Assembly: GCA_964436545.1 (NCBI GenBank)
Contig: CAYTCJ010000001.1
Location: forward strand, 78,392 to 142,391
DNA from: an uncultured Candidatus Saccharibacteria bacterium
GTDB taxonomy: Bacteria > Patescibacteriota > Doudnabacteria > UBA920
Reading direction: 5' to 3'
DNA length: 64,000 nucleotides
Part shown: piece by piece, positions 41,347 through 49,018 of the stretch
How the letters are laid out: each line of letters starts with the position of its first letter
How positions within the stretch are numbered: position 1 is the stretch's first letter
Notes under the pieces: generated by a model
Told to the model about the DNA's origin: nothing
Database searches by the model: none
Seen by the model: the letters and a program-made list of their open reading frames with translations, nothing else
Translations under genes and position numbers: made by a program

Positions 41347-42423
41347 TTAGGCTTCGGGTTTAAAATTTTCCCAGTGGTATTTGTCGGGGTTAAAGCCTTC
41401 TCCACAAGTGGTTTCAATAAGCGCCGTGGCAATTTGGTAGGGGTCTAAGTTGGCAGCGGGGCGCCTGTCTTCCAAATAACCTTTTTTAGCATTGGCAGTG
41501 GCCATGGGGATTCTAATGCTCGCGCCTCTATCGGAAACGCCATAGCGGAATTGTTTATAACTGCAAGTTTCGTGTTTGCCGGTTAAGCGTTTGTCGTTGT
41601 TGGCGCCATACACGCGCATGTGGGCGTTATGAAATTTGCCCAGTTGTTCACAGGCTTTATTAATCACTTCCAGTCCGCCATCTTGGCGCATGGCTTTGGT
41701 GGAAAAATTGGTATGGCCACCGGCGCCATTCCAATCGCCAGTCATGGGTTTGGGGTCCAGTTTGGCATACATTTCAAAATCTTCGCCATGGCGATATAAA
41801 ATCCAACGTGCCAGCCACAACTGGTCGCCGGCTTCCAAAGGCGGAAGTACGCCAATTTGAAATTCCCACTGCGCCGGCATGACTTCGGCATTAATGCCGG
41901 AAATGGCAAAGCCGGCTTTTAAACAATCTTTTAAATGGGCTTCTACAAGTCTTCGGCCATAGACTTCGTCGCTACCCACTCCGCAATAATATTTGCCTTG
42001 CGGGTGAGGAAAACCGTCTTTAGGCCAGCCATAGGGCCAATCTTTGCGGTAGAGGGTGTATTCTTGCTCAAAGCCAAACCAAGGTTCGTGTTCTTGATAT
42101 TTTTCCGCCACTTGTCTAAGCACACTGCGGGTGTTAGTGGGGTGGGGAGTGCCGTCGGCATTTAAGACTTCGCACATGACTAAAATGTTAGGCTCTCCCC
42201 GAATCGGGTCGGGCATAAAATACACCGGACGCAAAGCGCAGTCGGAAAAATGACCTTCGGCTTGTTCGGTGCTACTGCCGTCAAAACCCCAATCGGGGAT
42301 GTCTTTAACTTCTCTTACTGGGCCATCTAAAACTTTGGTTTTGGAACGGAGTTTGGCAGTGGGTTTTTTGCCATCCATCCAAATATATTCTGCAAAAATT
42401 TTTGCCATATATTTTTTTGCCAA
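41347..42423 (-). CDS. glnA: Glutamine synthetase, type II (eukaryote-like)
   Basis: Collinear with GSII: DWGFDGSSTEQAEG, PWFGFEQEYTL, NAEVMPAQWEFQIG, GNWNGAGGHTNFSTKAMR. Confidence 0.9.
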   Translation of the reverse strand: MAKKYMAKIFAEYIWMDGKKPTAKLRSKTKVLDGPVREVKDIPDWGFDGSSTEQAEGHFSDCALRPVYFMPDPIRGEPNILVMCEVLNADGTPHPTNTRSVLRQVAEKYQEHEPWFGFEQEYTLYRKDWPYGWPKDGFPHPQGKYYCGVGSDEVYGRRLVEAHLKDCLKAGFAISGINAEVMPAQWEFQIGVLPPLEAGDQLWLARWILYRHGEDFEMYAKLDPKPMTGDWNGAGGHTNFSTKAMRQDGGLEVINKACEQLGKFHNAHMRVYGANNDKRLTGKHETCSYKQFRYGVSDRGASIRIPMATANAKKGYLEDRRPAANLDPYQIATALIETTCGEGFNPDKYHWENFKPEA

Positions 42424-42795: not shown

Positions 42796-42840
42796 AAGAA
42801 AATAAGAAAAGCGCGCCGGTGGATGGTACCGGCGCGCGGG
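42796..42840 (-). terminator. Intrinsic terminator on the minus strand (GC hairpin plus U-run)
   Basis: Minus strand reads GCGCGCCGGUACCAUCCACCGGCGCGC followed by UUUUCUUAUUUUCUU. Confidence 0.6.
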
Positions 42841-42849
42841 AAAGCTTGA

Positions 42850-43047
42850 TCACTTGCGCGGAAAGCACTCGTGATCGGCTCGCCCCGCCCACTCAACGGT
42901 GGGCGACGGTTGTTTCGGGGGTTCCGCCGGCGGTCGCACCGGCGGGCGGGGGTGCTCAAGTGAGCAACCCCCTGAAGTGGTGGGGGTGGGCAGGGCGTCG
43001 GCCGCATGGCGGTCGACCTCCGGCCCGTGAGGATCCCATTCTTGCAT
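42850..43047 (-). CDS. GC-rich small ORF (65 aa, Pro-rich) with consensus RBS; an alternative reading is a structured RNA
   Basis: AAAGGAGGATACC-ATG RBS, ORF spans a sharply GC-rich segment, and an intrinsic terminator follows immediately. Confidence 0.35.
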   Translation of the reverse strand: MQEWDPHGPEVDRHAADALPTPTTSGGCSLEHPRPPVRPPAEPPKQPSPTVEWAGRADHECFPRK

Positions 43048-43286
43048 GGTATCCTCCTTTCAAGGAGGAGTTTAAAGGAAAGCTGGGAAAATTGTCAAAT
43101 CTTAATGATAGTTTAAAGAAATAATGTTTTGCAATTTATTATATAGAAAATGGATTCCAGATCCATCCACCAGATGGCGGACGGGATGACAAGACAGAAT
43201 TTATCAGACCAATATGACCAATACGTCTGATGGCGTAGTTTGTGTGTTATAATATTCAATATCCAAATAATTAAACTAGACCACCA

Positions 43287-44022: not shown

Positions 44023-45027
44023 TTAGGTTTTAGACATTGTGCTTGATAAGGTTTTTTGATATTTTTTTAAGCGAGTTTCAATTGCCTCAAAGTCTAAGTT
44101 GGTAAGTTTAAGGGTGCCAAAATCTTCCACACAAAAACTGGCTAAGACCGTGGCTATTTCGCAAGCGGTTTTAATAAAATTTAAAGTGGTATTTTGGTGT
44201 TTGGCAATATAACCCATAAGGGCGCCGGCAAAAACATCGCCGGCGCCGGTGGGGTCTTTAACTTTTTTAAGTTTAACTGCGGGCAAAGAAAAGTGGTTGA
44301 GTTTGGCGTTTTTGCCATTGGCAAAAAATAATGTCATACCTTGGGCGCCTTGCTTAATAATGAGCAAGGGTTTAAGTTTGGGGTTCATGAGTTTATAAAT
44401 TTTTTGCGCGCTGTCAAACAGGTTGGTAGTGTGAGAAAGTTCTTGCGCCTCTGTTTCGTTCAGCGTAAGCAGGTGGACTTGTTTGATGACTTTTAGCAAA
44501 TCGGCCTTGGCAGAGTTTATCCAAAAATTCATGGTGTCCAAACCAATAAATTTTGTCCGCTGGGCCGATTGGATTTGTTTTAAAACTTCCAGTTGCAGTT
44601 TAGGGTGGATATTGCCTAAAAATACATAGGTGGATTGGGCGTGTCTGAAAGTTAGTTCAGGGACAAAGTCGGCAAAGACGCCCAATTCGGTTTTTAGGGT
44701 ATCGCGGTGGTTTAAATCTTTATGGTATTTGCCTTGCCAATGAAAAGTTTTACCCGGTTTTTGCTTTAAGCCGGAAATATCCACTTTGTGTTTTATAAAG
44801 ACGGAGAAATGTTTAAAATCATTGCCTACCACGCCCACAATGGCTGTGGGGGCAAAAAAACCGGAGGCCAAAGCAAAATGGCTGGCGCTCCCGCCTAAGG
44901 TCTTGTGGATTTCGCCAAAGGGCGTAATGATGCTATCGTAGGCAATGGAACCCACGCATAATAGCTTGGAAGGTTGACCTGGAGTTTTTCCCATAATATA
45001 ATTATAGCAGATGATTAGACTTACCAA
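44023..45027 (-). CDS. PfkB-family sugar/nucleoside kinase (second paralog)
   Basis: PfkB signature DPTGAGDVFAGALMGYIA; N-terminal LLCVGSIAYD. Confidence 0.7.
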   Translation of the reverse strand: MVSLIICYNYIMGKTPGQPSKLLCVGSIAYDSIITPFGEIHKTLGGSASHFALASGFFAPTAIVGVVGNDFKHFSVFIKHKVDISGLKQKPGKTFHWQGKYHKDLNHRDTLKTELGVFADFVPELTFRHAQSTYVFLGNIHPKLQLEVLKQIQSAQRTKFIGLDTMNFWINSAKADLLKVIKQVHLLTLNETEAQELSHTTNLFDSAQKIYKLMNPKLKPLLIIKQGAQGMTLFFANGKNAKLNHFSLPAVKLKKVKDPTGAGDVFAGALMGYIAKHQNTTLNFIKTACEIATVLASFCVEDFGTLKLTNLDFEAIETRLKKYQKTLSSTMSKT

Positions 45028-45402
45028 TGAACAATTAATTAAAGTTTCAGATATAGCATCGCAAGTTGGGACAGTGGCTTTTAGTTCTGCGATTTTGCCC
45101 TCGGTTTCTGATTTAAAAGGAGTTTGGATGCTTTTTAGTCTTACTTTTGCCTTTGCTTTATGGTATTGGAGTATAATTATAATAAAAATAACAAAGGAAA
45201 TTTAAAATTATGAAAATAGAATTATTTTATGTGGTTTTAGGAATTGCAGTGTTGGCGATCATTTTGGTTGCCTTGCCGACTTTGCTTGACAAGCGGAAAA
45301 AATAAGCGTAAGCTGGAATTAAGATGAATAAGAAATTAGCCCAAACTGTAGTTATGATGATGCCTTTTGCTACTCGCAAAGGCTAGTTTAGATATTATTT
45401 CT

Positions 45403-45440
45403 AAACCCCGCCCTTTGCAAAGGGCGGGGTTTGTTTTTTA
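45403..45440 (+). terminator. Intrinsic terminator
   Basis: CCCCGCCCTTTGCAAAGGGCGGGG perfect hairpin followed by TTTGTTTTTT. Confidence 0.75.
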
Positions 45441-45772
45441 TCCCCTCTGAGGGGAATCATACACAGTAGCGGGTGAGTAAGACGAATATTCACACTTTGT
45501 CATTCCGGAATTCTGCTCTTTGTCCCAAAGGGCGGAATATCCGGAATCCAGTTATCATAGAAACTAAATTTTGGATTCCGTCTTAGGTGTACTTGCCCAG
45601 GATGATACCAGAGTTATAAAAAGGGTAATTAAACTTTATGAAAATATTTTATTACATAAATCAAAACATGATGATGCGAACCCGCTTGTGGAAGTGGCTA
45701 AATTGCGCGTGAGTTTTCTCCTTCGCAGTTTTGCCACCTTCACCAGGTAGGCAAAATTTTAGGGAGGAAAAA

Positions 45773-46615
45773 ATGAATTGCATTTACATCAGCGACACTC
45801 TGGGCGACGACAATGCCCGGGGTCGCATCACCACGCGTCTTTTGACGGGGATCGGCGAGTCTGTCTTCACCTCGGTCACCCCAATTGGGGTGGATAGCGA
45901 AGTAGAGGGGTTCGTTCAGTTGGTTGACCTGCTGGACGCAACCCGGGGGAACAAGGCGGTAATTCTGTTCAACGTCGCCCCTAGGGGCGTGAACAAGAAG
46001 CGACTGCCGAACGGTTCGCCGTTTGGACATCTGCGGGTGGGGAACGCGGATATTTTCCCGACTGTGGAGGGTCGGGTGCTTCCGCTCCTTCAAAATCTTT
46101 TGAACAGGCGCCTGCGGGTGCGAGTTCACGAGATTTGTCCAGAGGTGCTGGGGGCGGTCGGGATTCCGCGGTACCAGTGGAAGTACGTGACTTCCACGCA
46201 GTTCCGTTCCTACGAGTTCCTTCCTGACCTGGCCAATGCGGTCATGTCAGGTAAGGAAGTTCCGGGACGGGAAATGGCGGTGGCACGGATCCGTGGGGGC
46301 GGGGGTTTCGTCGGGATAGTGGACAAGTTCGGCAACATTAAAACAACGGCGTTGCCGAGCGACATCGGCTTTCGTCCCGGTCGCACGCTTGCCCTGGATC
46401 TTGGTGGCACAGAGGTTCGCCTCCCGTGCTACCCGAAACTCAAGGACGTCCCGTGTGGTACCCTCGCCGCGGTCGTGGGTTCGTCTGGCCTCTGGGTCGG
46501 GCGGGCGAACAAGCGGTTCGTTGAGATAGTTGTGCAGAAAGGGGACGCGTCGTCCCGTTTGTACGACCTCACCGGGGTCGCCGTGGCCCCGGGACTCAAA
46601 TTGCAGTTCGCGTAG
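45773..46615 (+). CDS. GC-rich, likely horizontally acquired gene; SAM hydroxide adenosyltransferase (DUF62 / fluorinase-chlorinase) family-like
   Basis: GGGAGG RBS 5 nt before ATG; about 60% GC by eye; motifs IYISDTLGDDNARG (compare SDLGTTDDS), VAPRGVN (compare VDPGVG), DKFGNIKTT (compare DxFGNV). Confidence 0.45.
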   Translation: MNCIYISDTLGDDNARGRITTRLLTGIGESVFTSVTPIGVDSEVEGFVQLVDLLDATRGNKAVILFNVAPRGVNKKRLPNGSPFGHLRVGNADIFPTVEGRVLPLLQNLLNRRLRVRVHEICPEVLGAVGIPRYQWKYVTSTQFRSYEFLPDLANAVMSGKEVPGREMAVARIRGGGGFVGIVDKFGNIKTTALPSDIGFRPGRTLALDLGGTEVRLPCYPKLKDVPCGTLAAVVGSSGLWVGRANKRFVEIVVQKGDASSRLYDLTGVAVAPGLKLQFA

Positions 46616-46624
46616 ATGCGCAAA

Positions 46625-46665
46625 AGCGGGCGGACCTTAACCAGTCTGCCCGCCGTTTTTATTTA
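46625..46665 (+). terminator. Intrinsic terminator after the GC-rich gene
   Basis: GCGGGCGGAC...GTCTGCCCGCC hairpin followed by GTTTTTATTTATTT. Confidence 0.7.
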
Positions 46666-46857
46666 TTTAAATGTTTTTTGGTTTCGTAGGGTTTTTTGGT
46701 GTCGGCTTTTTATTATGTTTATAATCCCAATCAGTACCGCCTTCAAAGGGGTGTAATCCAGAAAGGACATCTTCGTAATGTGTTTCCTCTGGCTCTGGTA
46801 AATAGTTTTCTGTTTTTTTTGGCATAATTCTTAATTCACTATTCATAATTCTATCTT

Positions 46858-48378
46858 TTATCCCAAACTGTGCCTTAACACAGCTTGTTTTTCTATGAGT
46901 TTAGTTAATGATTTTTGAGTAAAAATTTGTTTATGGAGCTGGGCGGATAACTGTTGGTGGGCTTTGGCTTGTGGGGTTTGGGCGCTAAATTCGGTGAGTA
47001 AATAACTTTCTAAAGCCTGAACATCTTGCCAAACCTGTTTTAAACCCGGGAATTTTTTACTTAAAGCCAAAAGCCCCGGTTTGTACAGGAATTGACCGGC
47101 GAATAATAAATCTGTTTTTAAATTCAGATAAGTTTTTTCTAAAAGTTGAATTGTGCCATTATCTATGGCGGTTTTTATGCCTCTGCCGGTGCCAATTAAT
47201 TCCGGAGGCAAGCCTAAAGCATATAAACTGCCGGTAAAGCTAATGGCTCTGGGCAAGCGCACTTTGCCTGTGCCTCGACTATAACCAAACAAGCCAATAT
47301 GTTGAACTCTTTCCCGTCTTTTGGGAAAATGTAAAGCCACTTGATTAATGAGAGGAGCCAGGCTTTCTACGGTGGGTTGGTAAACAGCTTCAAAGGTTTG
47401 AGTAAGTTGGATTAAAGTTTGTTCTTCGGTTGGGCTTAGGGTTTTGGCTGAGTGTTTGGGGAAAGTTTCGTTAAAGTAAGTAAGCGCTTTTTTAACTTGC
47501 GCTTTGGGAAAATCGTAACGAAAAGCACTTTGGATGGTGGTGGTTTTTACGCCTCGGTATTCGGCACAAAAAGCTTCCGGTGAATTGGGGTTAAGTCCGC
47601 CTCGAAAGGGTAAAGTGCCGGCGCCAATAATTGGGTAGAGGGGCAAACGATGTTTTTTACTAAAGTGCAAATAGCGGGAAAAGGCAAGTTTTATGGCCAA
47701 AACTGTGGGGACCAAACCGGAGTTTAATGCCGGGTCGGAACGCGCCACAAAAGGCCTTAAATATTTGGGTCGGCTTTTAAATTTGTGTTCATAAAGCGCC
47801 AAATATTTTTCTAAAATTTTATGAGAATGAATAATGCTGTTAACGGTTTCAAACAAAGGAATGACTTCTAAAAACATTTCGCAATTTTCTTCCATGCGGT
47901 TAAGCGGGTGTCTTAAGCAAGCAATTTCTTTAAAAGCTTCTTGAATGGCAATTAACTCCTCGGCGGTTTCGGTCATGGGTAAAATTACTTCAAACAAAGG
48001 GGGGGCGTGAAGTTGGGTTTGGCGAGCTAGGCCGGTTGCCGTGAGTATGCCCATTAGCGCCCGAGACATTCGGAATTCGTGCTGAACTTTGGGGTTGGGC
48101 AAACGGAAAGTTAAAAATTTATTTTTGCCTAATTGATGAGTTTTAAAATAATCGTAATGATCGGCTAACATTCTTTCTACTACCGATTCATCGACTAATT
48201 TACCTTCCCAGTCCCACATGTATTCATCGGTATTTAAGTCTTTAAAACAGGTAAAGCTTTCTTGGGTTTCGTGGACAGCCGGAATAAACGCACTGTTTTT
48301 TTGCCAAAAAGGCACCGAGGCGTGGTCGGGGTGCTGAGTGGCCATACAGCTGGGGATTTTGCGGGGGGATTTTTTCAT
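46858..48378 (-). CDS. ppcA: Phosphoenolpyruvate carboxylase, archaeal type (PepcA family)
   Basis: N-terminal MATQHPD signature of archaeal-type PEPC; about 500 aa length; internal similarity blocks. Confidence 0.7.
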   Translation of the reverse strand: MKKSPRKIPSCMATQHPDHASVPFWQKNSAFIPAVHETQESFTCFKDLNTDEYMWDWEGKLVDESVVERMLADHYDYFKTHQLGKNKFLTFRLPNPKVQHEFRMSRALMGILTATGLARQTQLHAPPLFEVILPMTETAEELIAIQEAFKEIACLRHPLNRMEENCEMFLEVIPLFETVNSIIHSHKILEKYLALYEHKFKSRPKYLRPFVARSDPALNSGLVPTVLAIKLAFSRYLHFSKKHRLPLYPIIGAGTLPFRGGLNPNSPEAFCAEYRGVKTTTIQSAFRYDFPKAQVKKALTYFNETFPKHSAKTLSPTEEQTLIQLTQTFEAVYQPTVESLAPLINQVALHFPKRRERVQHIGLFGYSRGTGKVRLPRAISFTGSLYALGLPPELIGTGRGIKTAIDNGTIQLLEKTYLNLKTDLLFAGQFLYKPGLLALSKKFPGLKQVWQDVQALESYLLTEFSAQTPQAKAHQQLSAQLHKQIFTQKSLTKLIEKQAVLRHSLG

Positions 48379-48667: not shown

Positions 48668-49018
48668 ATGAATTATCTTTATAACAATATTAAATTAAAA
48701 TTAGTTAGAAAGCACTTACGAAATAATTCCGGTTTGCCTGAGATTATTCTTTGGGAGCAATTAAGAGCAAGCAAGTTGGGAAAAAAATTTAGAAGACAAT
48801 ATGGTGTAGGTAAGTTTGTTCTCGATTTTTATTCTCCCCAAATTCGGTTGGGTATTGAATTAGACGGAGCTACGCATGATAACATAAAAAGTTTTGAGAA
48901 AGATATAATTAGGCAGAAATTTATTGAAAGCCAAAATATAAAAGTAATTAGATTCCAAAATAAAGATGTTTTAGAGAATTTAGAAGGGGTAATTAATGAA
49001 ATAAAAAAATATTTGTGA
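48668..49018 (+). CDS. DUF559 endonuclease-domain protein (Vsr-like fold)
   Basis: LPEIILWEQLRASKLG..FRRQYGVGKFVLDFYSPQIRLGIELDGATHD...KVIRFQNKDVLENLEGVINEI matches DUF559. Confidence 0.75.
   Translation: MNYLYNNIKLKLVRKHLRNNSGLPEIILWEQLRASKLGKKFRRQYGVGKFVLDFYSPQIRLGIELDGATHDNIKSFEKDIIRQKFIESQNIKVIRFQNKDVLENLEGVINEIKKYL

Follow-up and report, generated by a model that had tools for sequence, protein, structure and literature searches.

A GC-rich gene of the DUF62 fold and its methionine-run leader peptides in a Patescibacteria genome

The locus, its composition and its leader

Within a 64-kb stretch of DNA from an uncultured Patescibacteria genome (the whole of which we call the window, with W denoting its allele or lineage and L-numbers denoting related loci from other assemblies), we analyzed a single GC-rich gene on the plus strand at 45773-46615 together with the region upstream of it. 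The gene comprises 843 bp including its stop codon, is uninterrupted, and encodes a 280-amino-acid (aa) divergent protein with the fold of the DUF62 / S-adenosylmethionine (SAM) hydroxide adenosyltransferases. Its GC content is 0.601 (0.63, 0.45 and 0.72 at first, second and third codon positions, referred to as GC1, GC2 and GC3) compared to 0.393 for the rest of the window, and the boundaries of the GC-rich segment are sharp, lying at approximately 45680 and 46660. Relative to a host reference of 37 open reading frames (ORFs) of at least 200 aa, in which GC3 is 0.382 +/- 0.068 and reaches a maximum of 0.49, the gene stands 5.0 standard deviations higher in GC3 and 4.2 higher in GC1. Codon usage deviates as well: TTA accounts for none of its leucine codons (46% in the host), AGA for none of its arginine codons (35% in the host) and AAA for 33% of its lysine codons (82% in the host), and the gene prefers AAG and GAG where the host takes AAA and GAA about 80% of the time. 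Amino acid composition is shifted along with GC1, resembling that of proteins evolved in GC-rich genomes.

The original prediction, which described a single gene of about 840 bp and about 60% GC between flanks of about 40% GC, is therefore upheld as to composition by both the windowed GC and the codon-usage analyses. Several of its structural details were found too, namely the N- and C-terminal motifs (IYISDTLGDDNARG, VAPRGVN and DKFGNIKTT), all of which are present in the 280-aa protein, a ribosome-binding site in the form of the Shine-Dalgarno (SD) sequence GGGAGG (45762-45767, plus strand), and an intrinsic terminator after the gene (46626-46653, plus strand) with a 10-bp stem, 8 GC pairs and a subsequent T-run. 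Antisense ORFs of 129, 66 and 64 aa likewise lie inside the gene as described and are an expected by-product of GC-rich DNA; a dN/dS ratio (nonsynonymous to synonymous substitution rates) of 0.08-0.11 among W, L001 and L002 indicates that the gene itself is really coding. Next in GC content among the genes of the window is that for a 358-aa glutamine synthetase (41347-42423, minus strand) with 49% GC (GC1 0.55, GC3 0.48), and because it is syntenic in L173 it is probably vertical rather than foreign.

A PfkB-family kinase and an archaeal-type phosphoenolpyruvate (PEP) carboxylase flank the GC-rich gene, with histidyl-tRNA synthetase (HisRS) beyond, in each independent assembly. W, L001 and L002/3 hold the leader, the GC-rich gene and a small ORF between PfkB and PEP carboxylase, and L001, L002, L003, L004 and L093, which derive from different samples, share the same neighbors. 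By contrast, in L173 (HisRS 67% identical) the PfkB and PEPcase_2 genes are adjacent and 25 nt apart, constituting an empty site, and comparison with it delimits an island of approximately 1.8 kb (45028-46857) that includes everything from the PfkB start to the PEP carboxylase stop. Proteins 88% and 86% identical to that of W are encoded at the same locus (81% nucleotide identity), where the gene has a GC content of 0.57-0.59 compared to 0.36-0.39 in the flanks, and a 220-kb NCBI contig in the public collection carries an identical protein. The small ORF encodes 59 aa on the minus strand (46667-46846), between the island gene and PEP carboxylase; it has no Pfam match, and a gene of 59-60 aa occupies the same place in L001 and L002, with 48% identity between W and L001. 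The assignment of the host to a small-genome lineage in the original prediction fits the named HisRS relatives, which belong to Patescibacteria or Doudnabacteria.

Where the original prediction placed a native-looking promoter ahead of the gene, a consensus scan found no sigma-70-like site in its immediate vicinity, and the region is instead a leader with two upstream ORFs (uORFs) that contain runs of methionine (Met) codons. These leader peptides and the accompanying attenuator, which had been overlooked, are the most telling evidence on function at the locus. The single plus-strand site of the sigma-70 type recovered by the scan before the gene is the promoter-like TTGACC-17-TATAAT at 44974-45002, a consensus match only, which agrees at 11 of 12 positions. 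Downstream of this site lie ORF-A (45210-45305, plus strand), translated as a 31-aa hydrophobic peptide, MKIELFYVVLGIAVLAIILVALPTLLDKRKK, that is conserved in L001 and L002, and uORF1 (45324-45386, plus strand), whose peptide MNKKLAQTVVMMMPFATRKG has a Met-Met-Met run encoded at 45354-45362 within a VMMMP core conserved in L001, L002 and L007. When both strands of the 64-kb window are considered, the sequence ATGATGATG has just two copies, one in uORF1 and one in uORF2, both of them ahead of the gene. An intrinsic terminator (attenuator 1; 45403-45433, plus strand) with a 14-bp GC-rich stem and a T-run begins 14-16 nt past the uORF1 stop; L001 and L002/L004 share this hairpin, and L007 (71% identical) has an equivalent, with a distance of only 91 nt separating the VMMMP leader and its hairpins from the gene. 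A further hairpin, 1:2 (GCCUUUUGC / GCAAAGGC; 45362-45383, plus strand), is kept in L001, L002 and L007, and its segment 2 (GCAAAGGC) has the alternative of pairing with the terminator's 5' arm (GCCCUUUGC) to give an antiterminator. In predictions of nascent-transcript folding, this 2:3 pairing has an energy of -15 kcal/mol with a ribosome stalled at the Met run and does not form when the ribosome occupies the stop codon.

The second leader peptide, MKIFYYINQNMMMRTRLWKWLNCA, is encoded by uORF2 (45638-45712, plus strand) and carries its Met-Met-Met run at 45668-45676. This run is invariant in L001 and in L002-4/L093, with the L001 peptide ending right after it, and uORF2 is absent in L007. A long conserved hairpin of the 5' untranslated region (45688-45743, plus strand) overlaps the end of uORF2; in an RNAalifold analysis of W, L001, L002 and L007 it comprises 23 pairs, 5 of them with compensatory changes, and it is kept even in L007. 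This covariation test of the window-type leader is limited to four sequences because a metagenome scan added two close relatives only, one of them a duplicate. Predicted folding also indicates that UUUUCUCCUU at 45713-22 can sequester the SD sequence of W when no ribosome occupies the uORF2 stop. Conservation among W, L001 and L002-4 covers the 140 nt preceding the gene and does not extend further upstream. No SAM-I riboswitch (RF00162) was detected in the window, L001, L002 or L007, and Rfam searches of the leader at permissive thresholds returned weak terminator-type matches (rnk leader, PyrR site) that score below the gathering score.

Between the two uORFs lies a variable spacer (45434-45637, plus strand) with short inverted repeats that cannot be aligned between W, L001 and L002. 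These repeats (CATTCCGGAAT...ATCCGGAATCC in W and CCCCCTCCCTGGAGGGGAGGGG at approximately 2140-2210 in L001) may be small mobile or repetitive extragenic palindrome (REP)-like insertions. Separately, a 31-nt direct repeat with 81% identity (45188-45218 and 45616-45646) spans the ribosome-binding site and first codons (ATGAAAATA) of ORF-A and uORF2, which suggests that the uORF2 start arose by local duplication.

Met-run leaders and SAM-I riboswitches across the family

Family members 33-40% identical, from other Patescibacteria lineages, display the same succession of a Met-run leader, an intrinsic terminator and then the gene. Leader peptides of this kind include MSKAYRMMNMMMAPERGRI in L024, MNRAIQNTMMMKMTNPLMRACFLV in L070, MNVKAQIEMMMAMMTLKNEGTFSYI in L155, MKKSQQQNVMMGMMMAFETLEFFAA in L161 and ...VTMMMSMMTAH... 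in L054. A uORF with at least three Met in six residues precedes 33 of 156 family genes compared to 12 of 972 control ORFs (p 1e-20), and when at least four Met in six residues are required the counts become 22 of 156 and 0 of 972 (p 3e-20). This difference persists when distinct upstream regions are compared (21/137 versus 0/886; p 1e-19). Met is the sole one of the 20 amino acids to show enrichment, and a weak signal for aspartate (4 versus 1) is the same ATGATG sequence in another frame.

An intrinsic terminator follows 24 of 27 distinct leaders, 23 of them in relatives and the remaining one after uORF1 of the window. The terminators of the relatives end 5-110 nt before the gene and in many cases within 5-30 nt of it, so that in these the gene can be transcribed only by read-through. 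In silico, the terminator is predicted in 22 of 25 leaders when the ribosome is at the stop codon and in 8 of 25 when it is at the first Met, and stalling causes the terminator to be lost in 17 of 25, with the C-terminal codons of the leader pairing with the 5' arm of the terminator. The proteins encoded behind these leaders are themselves sparing of Met, with internal Met making up 0.75% of residues in leader-controlled members compared to 1.56% in other members and 2.0% in neighboring proteins; the W protein has 2 in 279 residues.

In other branches of the family, SAM-I riboswitches occupy the region upstream of the gene. Five loci carry an aptamer that reaches the Rfam gathering score (59-66 bits against a threshold of 44.4), in each case together with a terminator: L015 (2453-2557), L019 (5749-5850), L096 (5526-5623), L098 (1006-1107) and L100 (5743-5844). 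A model built from these five aptamers adds L032 and L097, and no SAM-I riboswitch was found in 55 other loci. In the two riboswitch-bearing clades, the GC content of the gene exceeds that of its flanks by 9-20 points, and L111, which belongs to one of them, has a Met-run leader instead of the SAM-I element.

The arrangement resembles the trpL, hisL, leuL, thrL, pheL and ilvL attenuators in that a short uORF carries a run of codons for a single amino acid, a terminator stands directly upstream of the regulated gene, and the end of the leader is predicted to pair with the 5' arm of that terminator when the ribosome stalls. It differs from them in the amino acid that would be sensed and in its Patescibacteria host, and because the regulated gene would encode a salvage enzyme acting on SAM rather than a biosynthetic operon; the window layout, duplicated and with two Met-run uORFs, is moreover a derived one. 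Similarity to the S-box (SAM-I) regulon is provided by the five relatives with a bona fide aptamer and terminator in the leader, which place the family in a Met/SAM regulon, whereas the window and its close relatives have a Met-run leader in the riboswitch's place. Together, these comparisons lead us to infer that the family belongs to a regulon that would be induced by low Met-tRNA charging or low SAM, and such induction fits an enzyme whose useful product is methionine. The known regulators of Met genes are S-box/SAM riboswitches, T-boxes and MetJ. A comparative survey assigns Met to S-box riboswitches and not to attenuators, and we found no leader-peptide attenuator for Met described in the literature.

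Fold, active site and putative chemistry

Single-protein sequence searches remain below threshold for this protein, and family-level and fold-level searches were therefore needed to place it. On its own, the window protein scores 21.1 bits (E 3.9e-4) against PF20257, for which the gathering cut-off is 25.5, and has no match to PF01887, NCBIfam or PDB sequences. Among 37 family members, however, 36 match PF20257 at E <= 0.01 (best 3.6e-10) and 17 give weak matches to the NCBIfam "(R)-SAM hydrolase" model. A family profile searched against PDB sequences finds MJ1651 at E 2e-5, and local hhalign aligns the C-terminal domain with 87% probability and leaves the N-terminal domain unaligned. An AlphaFold2 model based on the 37-sequence alignment (pLDDT, the predicted local distance difference test, 94; pTM, the predicted TM-score, 0.91) has two domains, an N-terminal alpha/beta and a C-terminal beta-barrel-like domain. 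Foldseek searches of the PDB with this model gave 33 matches at E <= 1e-3 (2e-12 to 2e-7), with TM-scores of 0.54-0.71 over approximately 300 alignment columns; all belong to the DUF62 superfamily, comprising DUF62 hydrolases (TM, TTHA, PH0463 and the (R)-SAM hydrolase MJ1651), the chlorinases SalL/ClA and fluorinases, and the next match has an E value of 0.09. Based on the modeled fold, we consider membership in the DUF62 / SAM hydroxide adenosyltransferase superfamily to be solid. The resemblance to this family claimed in the original prediction thus holds for the fold and for the PF20257 domain of its relatives, and fails for PF01887 and for the catalytic residues of the hydrolases described below.

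A word-indexed search recovered 64 clusters of the family, and an exhaustive hidden Markov model (HMM) search of 50%-identity clusters returned 253 at E <= 1e-30 and 393 at E <= 1e-10. The metagenome-assembled genomes (MAGs) concerned are labeled Kerfeld-, Magasanik-, Sung-, Uhr-, Morani-, Nomura-, Falkow-, Doudna-, Woese-, Peregrini-/Peri- and Saccharibacteria, and the family is a small, Patescibacteria-centered branch of the DUF62 fold. It has no conserved gene neighborhood, the best neighbor cluster occurring in 7 of approximately 74 loci. One clade (L109, L113, L120, L123, L135, L136, L137, L140 and L147) has the gene within a few kb of 16S rRNA and tRNA genes.

Residues invariant in the 37 sequences are D8, D12, R18, R22, D52, D55, N67, A69, R71, N80, G81, P83, F84, Q143, F144, R145, S146, P151, D184, F186, N188, K190, G236-S-S-G239, R248, E251 and Q255; G187 is conserved in at least 90%. 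These were compared with a fluorinase reference identical in sequence to 1RQP and with five canonical hydrolase genes recovered by tblastn from plasmid and chromosome records of Aeromonas, Listeria, Nonomuraea, E. coli and Enterococcus; using the fluorinase as the query for homologues was of little use, as this returned fluorinases alone. In the literature, hydrolases are defined by an Asp68-Arg75-His127 triad (PH0463 numbering), halogenases by Thr80/Ser158 of FlA or Tyr70/Gly131 of SalL, and the SAM site by Asp16 of FlA and the IDxxFGN motif (Asp210, Asn215) (PMC4859513). Global hhalign places D8, which follows strand 1, at the ribose-binding Asp16 of FlA, V-D184-K-F-G-N188 at IDxxFGN (DHPFGN), P96-T-V-E99-G100-R-V-L at PxNGL (its Gly nearly invariant and its Asn replaced by Asp/Glu) and Q-F-R145-S146-Y-E at T-F-H-G-R-D of the hydrolases and T-F-Y-S158-R-E of the fluorinase. 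In addition, GSSG...EIVVQ aligns with NSxG...IAxN of the C-terminal Ser/Gly loop, and by motif and predicted secondary-structure register NVAPRGVNKKR with strand 3 corresponds to VVDPGVGTERK. On these alignments the residues that would hold the adenosyl and methionine moieties of SAM appear to be kept and the water-activating triad appears to be replaced, which marks the family as a distinct branch. Most likely, the enzyme would split either SAM or the inactive (R)-epimer of SAM, releasing L-methionine and adenosine.

Several observations speak against this assignment of chemistry. The hydrolase triad is not conserved, its place being taken by invariant Ala69, by Lys76 and by invariant Arg145, although the mapping of Ala69 and Lys76 follows the motif and secondary-structure register, as hhalign misplaced the VDPGVG / VAPRG segment. 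None of the 37 family members matches PF01887, the N-terminal domain, and the chemistry may differ accordingly; furthermore, reaction and substrate are predictions from fold, motifs and regulation. A rival possibility, which we regard as unlikely while giving it real weight, is that the protein is not a SAM hydrolase and instead uses another nucleophile (halide, phosphate or thiol), acts on another adenosyl-sulfonium substrate, or forms SAM. SalL and the fluorinase can run in reverse, toward SAM formation. In favor of this possibility are the replaced triad together with the invariant residues Ala69, Arg71, Gln143, Arg145 and Ser146, the divergence of the N-terminal domain, and S-box control itself, which is off at high SAM and would be odd for an enzyme that merely destroys SAM. 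Invariant Ser146 also aligns with Ser158 of FlA, a fluoride/halide ligand (PMC4859513), in the hhalign alignment. Conversely, a Met-sensing leader and Met sparing in the protein fit methionine as a product whatever the nucleophile, the weak (R)-SAM hydrolase matches in 17 of 37 members point toward hydrolysis, and canonical DUF62 enzymes are (R)-SAM hydrolases, which would also fit starvation control. Some of these canonical enzymes were recently shown to hydrolyze the inactive (R)-epimer of SAM (PDB 22uy).

Set against the DUF62 hydrolases (PH0463, MJ1651, TM/TTHA; PF01887 plus PF20257), the family shares the two-domain fold (Foldseek to E 2e-12, TM-score 0.6-0.7), a C-terminal domain recognizable by sequence, the strand-1 Asp, the (I/V)DxFGN motif and the C-terminal Ser/Gly loop, and recovery of methionine from SAM or (R)-SAM would suit its regulation. 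It departs from them in having invariant Ala69, Lys75/76 and invariant Arg145 for the triad and xT(I/V)(D/E)G for PxNGL, and in its confinement, almost complete across approximately 250-400 clusters at 50% identity, to Patescibacteria-type MAGs. The fluorinase FlA and chlorinase SalL, which perform SN2 (bimolecular nucleophilic substitution) chemistry at C5' of SAM, have the same fold, and in the alignment invariant Ser146 falls at the fluoride-binding Ser158 of FlA (TFYSRE / QFRSYE). Typical of the superfamily as a whole are a homotrimer whose active sites lie between subunits and the cleavage of SAM at C5'. Unlike FlA and SalL, with which identity is 13-15%, the family is without the fluorinase-specific loop, has variable Gly72 at the position of FlA Thr80 and SalL Tyr70, which is not conserved, and shows no halometabolite gene cluster around the gene.

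Origin of the GC-rich state and the overall reading

Synonymous divergence (dS) of the gene is 0.79-0.84 in all pairs of W, L001 and L002, a star-like pattern, whereas in the flanks it is 0.17-0.5 between W and L001 (95% aa identity; 95-96% on both sides of the tract) and 1.8-2.6 between W and L002 (60-77% aa identity). This mismatch indicates that the history of the gene is decoupled from that of the genomes. PEP carboxylase (46858-48378, minus strand, in W; 3409-4893 in L001) is only 74% identical in aa sequence between W and L001, with a dS of 1.25, and these values point to replacement, in W or L001, of a tract with PEP carboxylase, the small ORF and the GC-rich gene by recombination between relatives. 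Since the exchanged tract would include a PEP carboxylase of host composition, its source would be an AT-rich relative. To describe the direction of substitution we used a two-state likelihood fit to synonymous third positions on a star tree; parsimony polarization of GC-to-AT versus AT-to-GC changes was strongly biased in simulation and was replaced by this site-pattern fit. The equilibrium GC3 of the gene is 0.78 (bootstrap 0.55-1.0) and host-like values of 0.30-0.40 are rejected (2dlnL, twice the log-likelihood difference, 9.5-12.3), compared to 0.23 (range 0-0.39) for the neighboring PEP carboxylase. This fit argues against passive amelioration.

Across the family, gene composition tracks genome GC overall, with outliers in both directions, and native GC-rich copies occur in GC-rich genomes (L054, L076 and L085). 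L019 and L100 share the riboswitch and gene only, not the flanks, indicating that the regulator and gene move between genomes as a module. The GC-rich coding sequence is probably a xenolog from a GC-rich donor, plausibly another Patescibacteria lineage. We consider it rather improbable that the gene is instead native and owes its GC-richness to gene-specific selection, acting perhaps on the structure or stability of the mRNA, or on the codons chosen for translation under Met/SAM starvation. Such selection would be consistent with synonymous substitutions that behave as at an equilibrium GC3 of approximately 0.7-0.8, with a GC excess that persists in whole clades (L019/L098/L100, L015/L032/L096/L097/L111 and the W clade) and with avoidance of TTA, AGA, AAA and GAA. 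Against it, the L173 locus is an empty site, GC1 and amino acid composition are shifted too, and most members match the GC of their own genome, including members with Met leaders in AT-rich genomes (L024, L070 and L155). Many leader-controlled members match their genome in this way, which indicates that there is no general selective drive, and GC-richness as a general adaptation of members expressed during Met starvation was rejected on these grounds.

That a GC-rich donor passed the gene to this genome once and recently, and that its GC excess is now passively decaying, is quite improbable as well. Transfer of this kind would explain the strong deviation in composition and codon usage and the empty site in L173, and the family is transfer-prone, with other loci much GC-richer or GC-poorer than their flanks in unrelated contexts. 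However, lineages with flanking proteins only 60-77% identical have the GC-rich gene at this very locus, its alleles form a star-like set with dS of about 0.8, the tract that differs between W and L001 includes a PEP carboxylase of host composition, and a host-like equilibrium GC3 is rejected. The recent acquisition proposed in the original prediction is consequently not supported, and no synonymous decay to host GC is seen. The island is comparable to single-gene genomic islets acquired by horizontal transfer in its deviating GC and codon usage, its empty site and a gene tree in conflict with the flanks; unlike these, it is old, common to several lineages and without amelioration, and no integrase, tRNA target or flanking direct repeats were found at it. 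A tblastn search of 50,697 phage records for a phage origin gave no match.

The explanation that we favor with moderate confidence is that of a self-contained unit of leader, divergent DUF62-fold gene and terminator, controlled by Met/SAM starvation and carrying a long-resident GC-rich xenolog, that sits between PfkB and archaeal-type PEP carboxylase in an AT-rich Patescibacteria genome. Under low charged Met-tRNA, the ribosome would stall on the Met codons of uORF1, the antiterminator would form and transcription would read through, and in relatives a Met-run leader or a SAM-I riboswitch would serve the same shortage control, such that the enzyme is made when charged Met-tRNA or SAM is low. 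The enzyme would then attack C5' of a SAM-type sulfonium (SAM or its (R)-epimer), freeing L-methionine and adenosine in a step of methionine, and purine, salvage. The GC-rich allele would be long resident, exchanged by homologous recombination along with PEP carboxylase and not decaying to host composition. A bolder formulation, which we offer only tentatively, is that an undescribed Met-sensing attenuator, interchangeable with SAM-I, switches a triad-less DUF62 enzyme for recovery of Met and adenosine, possibly from SAM, the inactive (R)-epimer or SAM scavenged from a host, and that the GC-rich xenolog is actively maintained.

Some of our data sit uneasily with the explanation we favor. In the window, the uORF1 attenuator lies 339 nt from the gene and its terminator is the full-length minimum free energy structure in all ribosome states, and uORF2 is without a canonical terminator, with a predicted SD-sequestering logic that would act in the opposite direction. 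A Met leader is present in only about 20-25% of family loci and a riboswitch in about 5%, and a minority of family MAG records are labeled, as recorded, non-Patescibacteria. As to origin, the composition model has two states, a star tree, no rate heterogeneity and three alleles, and the donor lineage anticipated by the original prediction was not found: all homologues above 50% identity lie in AT-rich contexts and none in a GC-rich one.

It is very unlikely, in our estimation, that the Met-run uORFs are non-regulatory, either as chance ORFs or as the ends of small genes closed by ordinary terminators. In favor of this reading, their translation is a prediction from sequence, uORF1 of the window follows another small ORF and could end a separate small operon, and such uORFs are present at about a fifth of family loci only. 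Yet the enrichment (22/156 against 0/972) concerns Met and none of the other 19 amino acids, interruptions of the Met codons always keep the reading frame, many terminators of relatives lie 5-30 nt before the gene start, the alternative pairings vary with ribosome position, and the regulated proteins are depleted in Met. Finally, an assembly chimera or contaminating GC-rich fragment, a concern already voiced in the original prediction and to which the sharp GC boundaries at approximately 45680 and 46660 might seem to speak, has next to no probability and is excluded because assemblies made independently, from samples and sources that differ (Logan SRR23702517, ENA ERZ27257034, NCBI GCA_005802045.1 and Logan SRR8894381), show the same synteny and junctions, with leader, terminator and flanks contiguous and conserved.

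If the bolder formulation is true, organisms unable to make methionine would possess a dedicated salvage route for Met starvation. The physiological role of DUF62 proteins has so far been uncertain, and regulation would supply independent, sequence-only evidence that the divergent branch is induced by Met/SAM shortage, making a role in methionine salvage directly testable. An attenuator reading Met codons would add a new amino acid to the classical mechanism and would count among the few defined regulatory devices of candidate-phyla-radiation bacteria, whose members are uncultured and rely metabolically on hosts. The altered active site (Ala/Lys/Arg for Asp/Arg/His, with a fluorinase-like Ser) would be relevant to engineering of SAM-dependent nucleophilic enzymes, and a lack of amelioration over a dS of approximately 0.8 in an AT-rich genome challenges the reading of compositional islands as recent.

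Other features were noted in the surroundings of the island. The stretch from PfkB to HisRS is variable in the host group, with gene content that differs in L173, L174 and L175, and in the window it includes a gene for a 116-aa protein of DUF559 / Vsr-like endonuclease fold (48668-49018, plus strand) between PEP carboxylase and tRNA-Gly/HisRS, a homologue of which lies at a different position in L002. A non-coding GC-rich patch (42810-43075; 56-70% GC) is located upstream of the gene for a Vut_1 (queuosine-precursor-type) transporter. It has no Rfam match even at E <= 1 and no ARAGORN prediction, its predicted folding is far more stable than that of shuffled sequences (z -5.4 on the plus and -7.9 on the minus strand), and L003 has its core (42924-43076) at the corresponding position with 82% identity; the patch may be an undescribed structured RNA.

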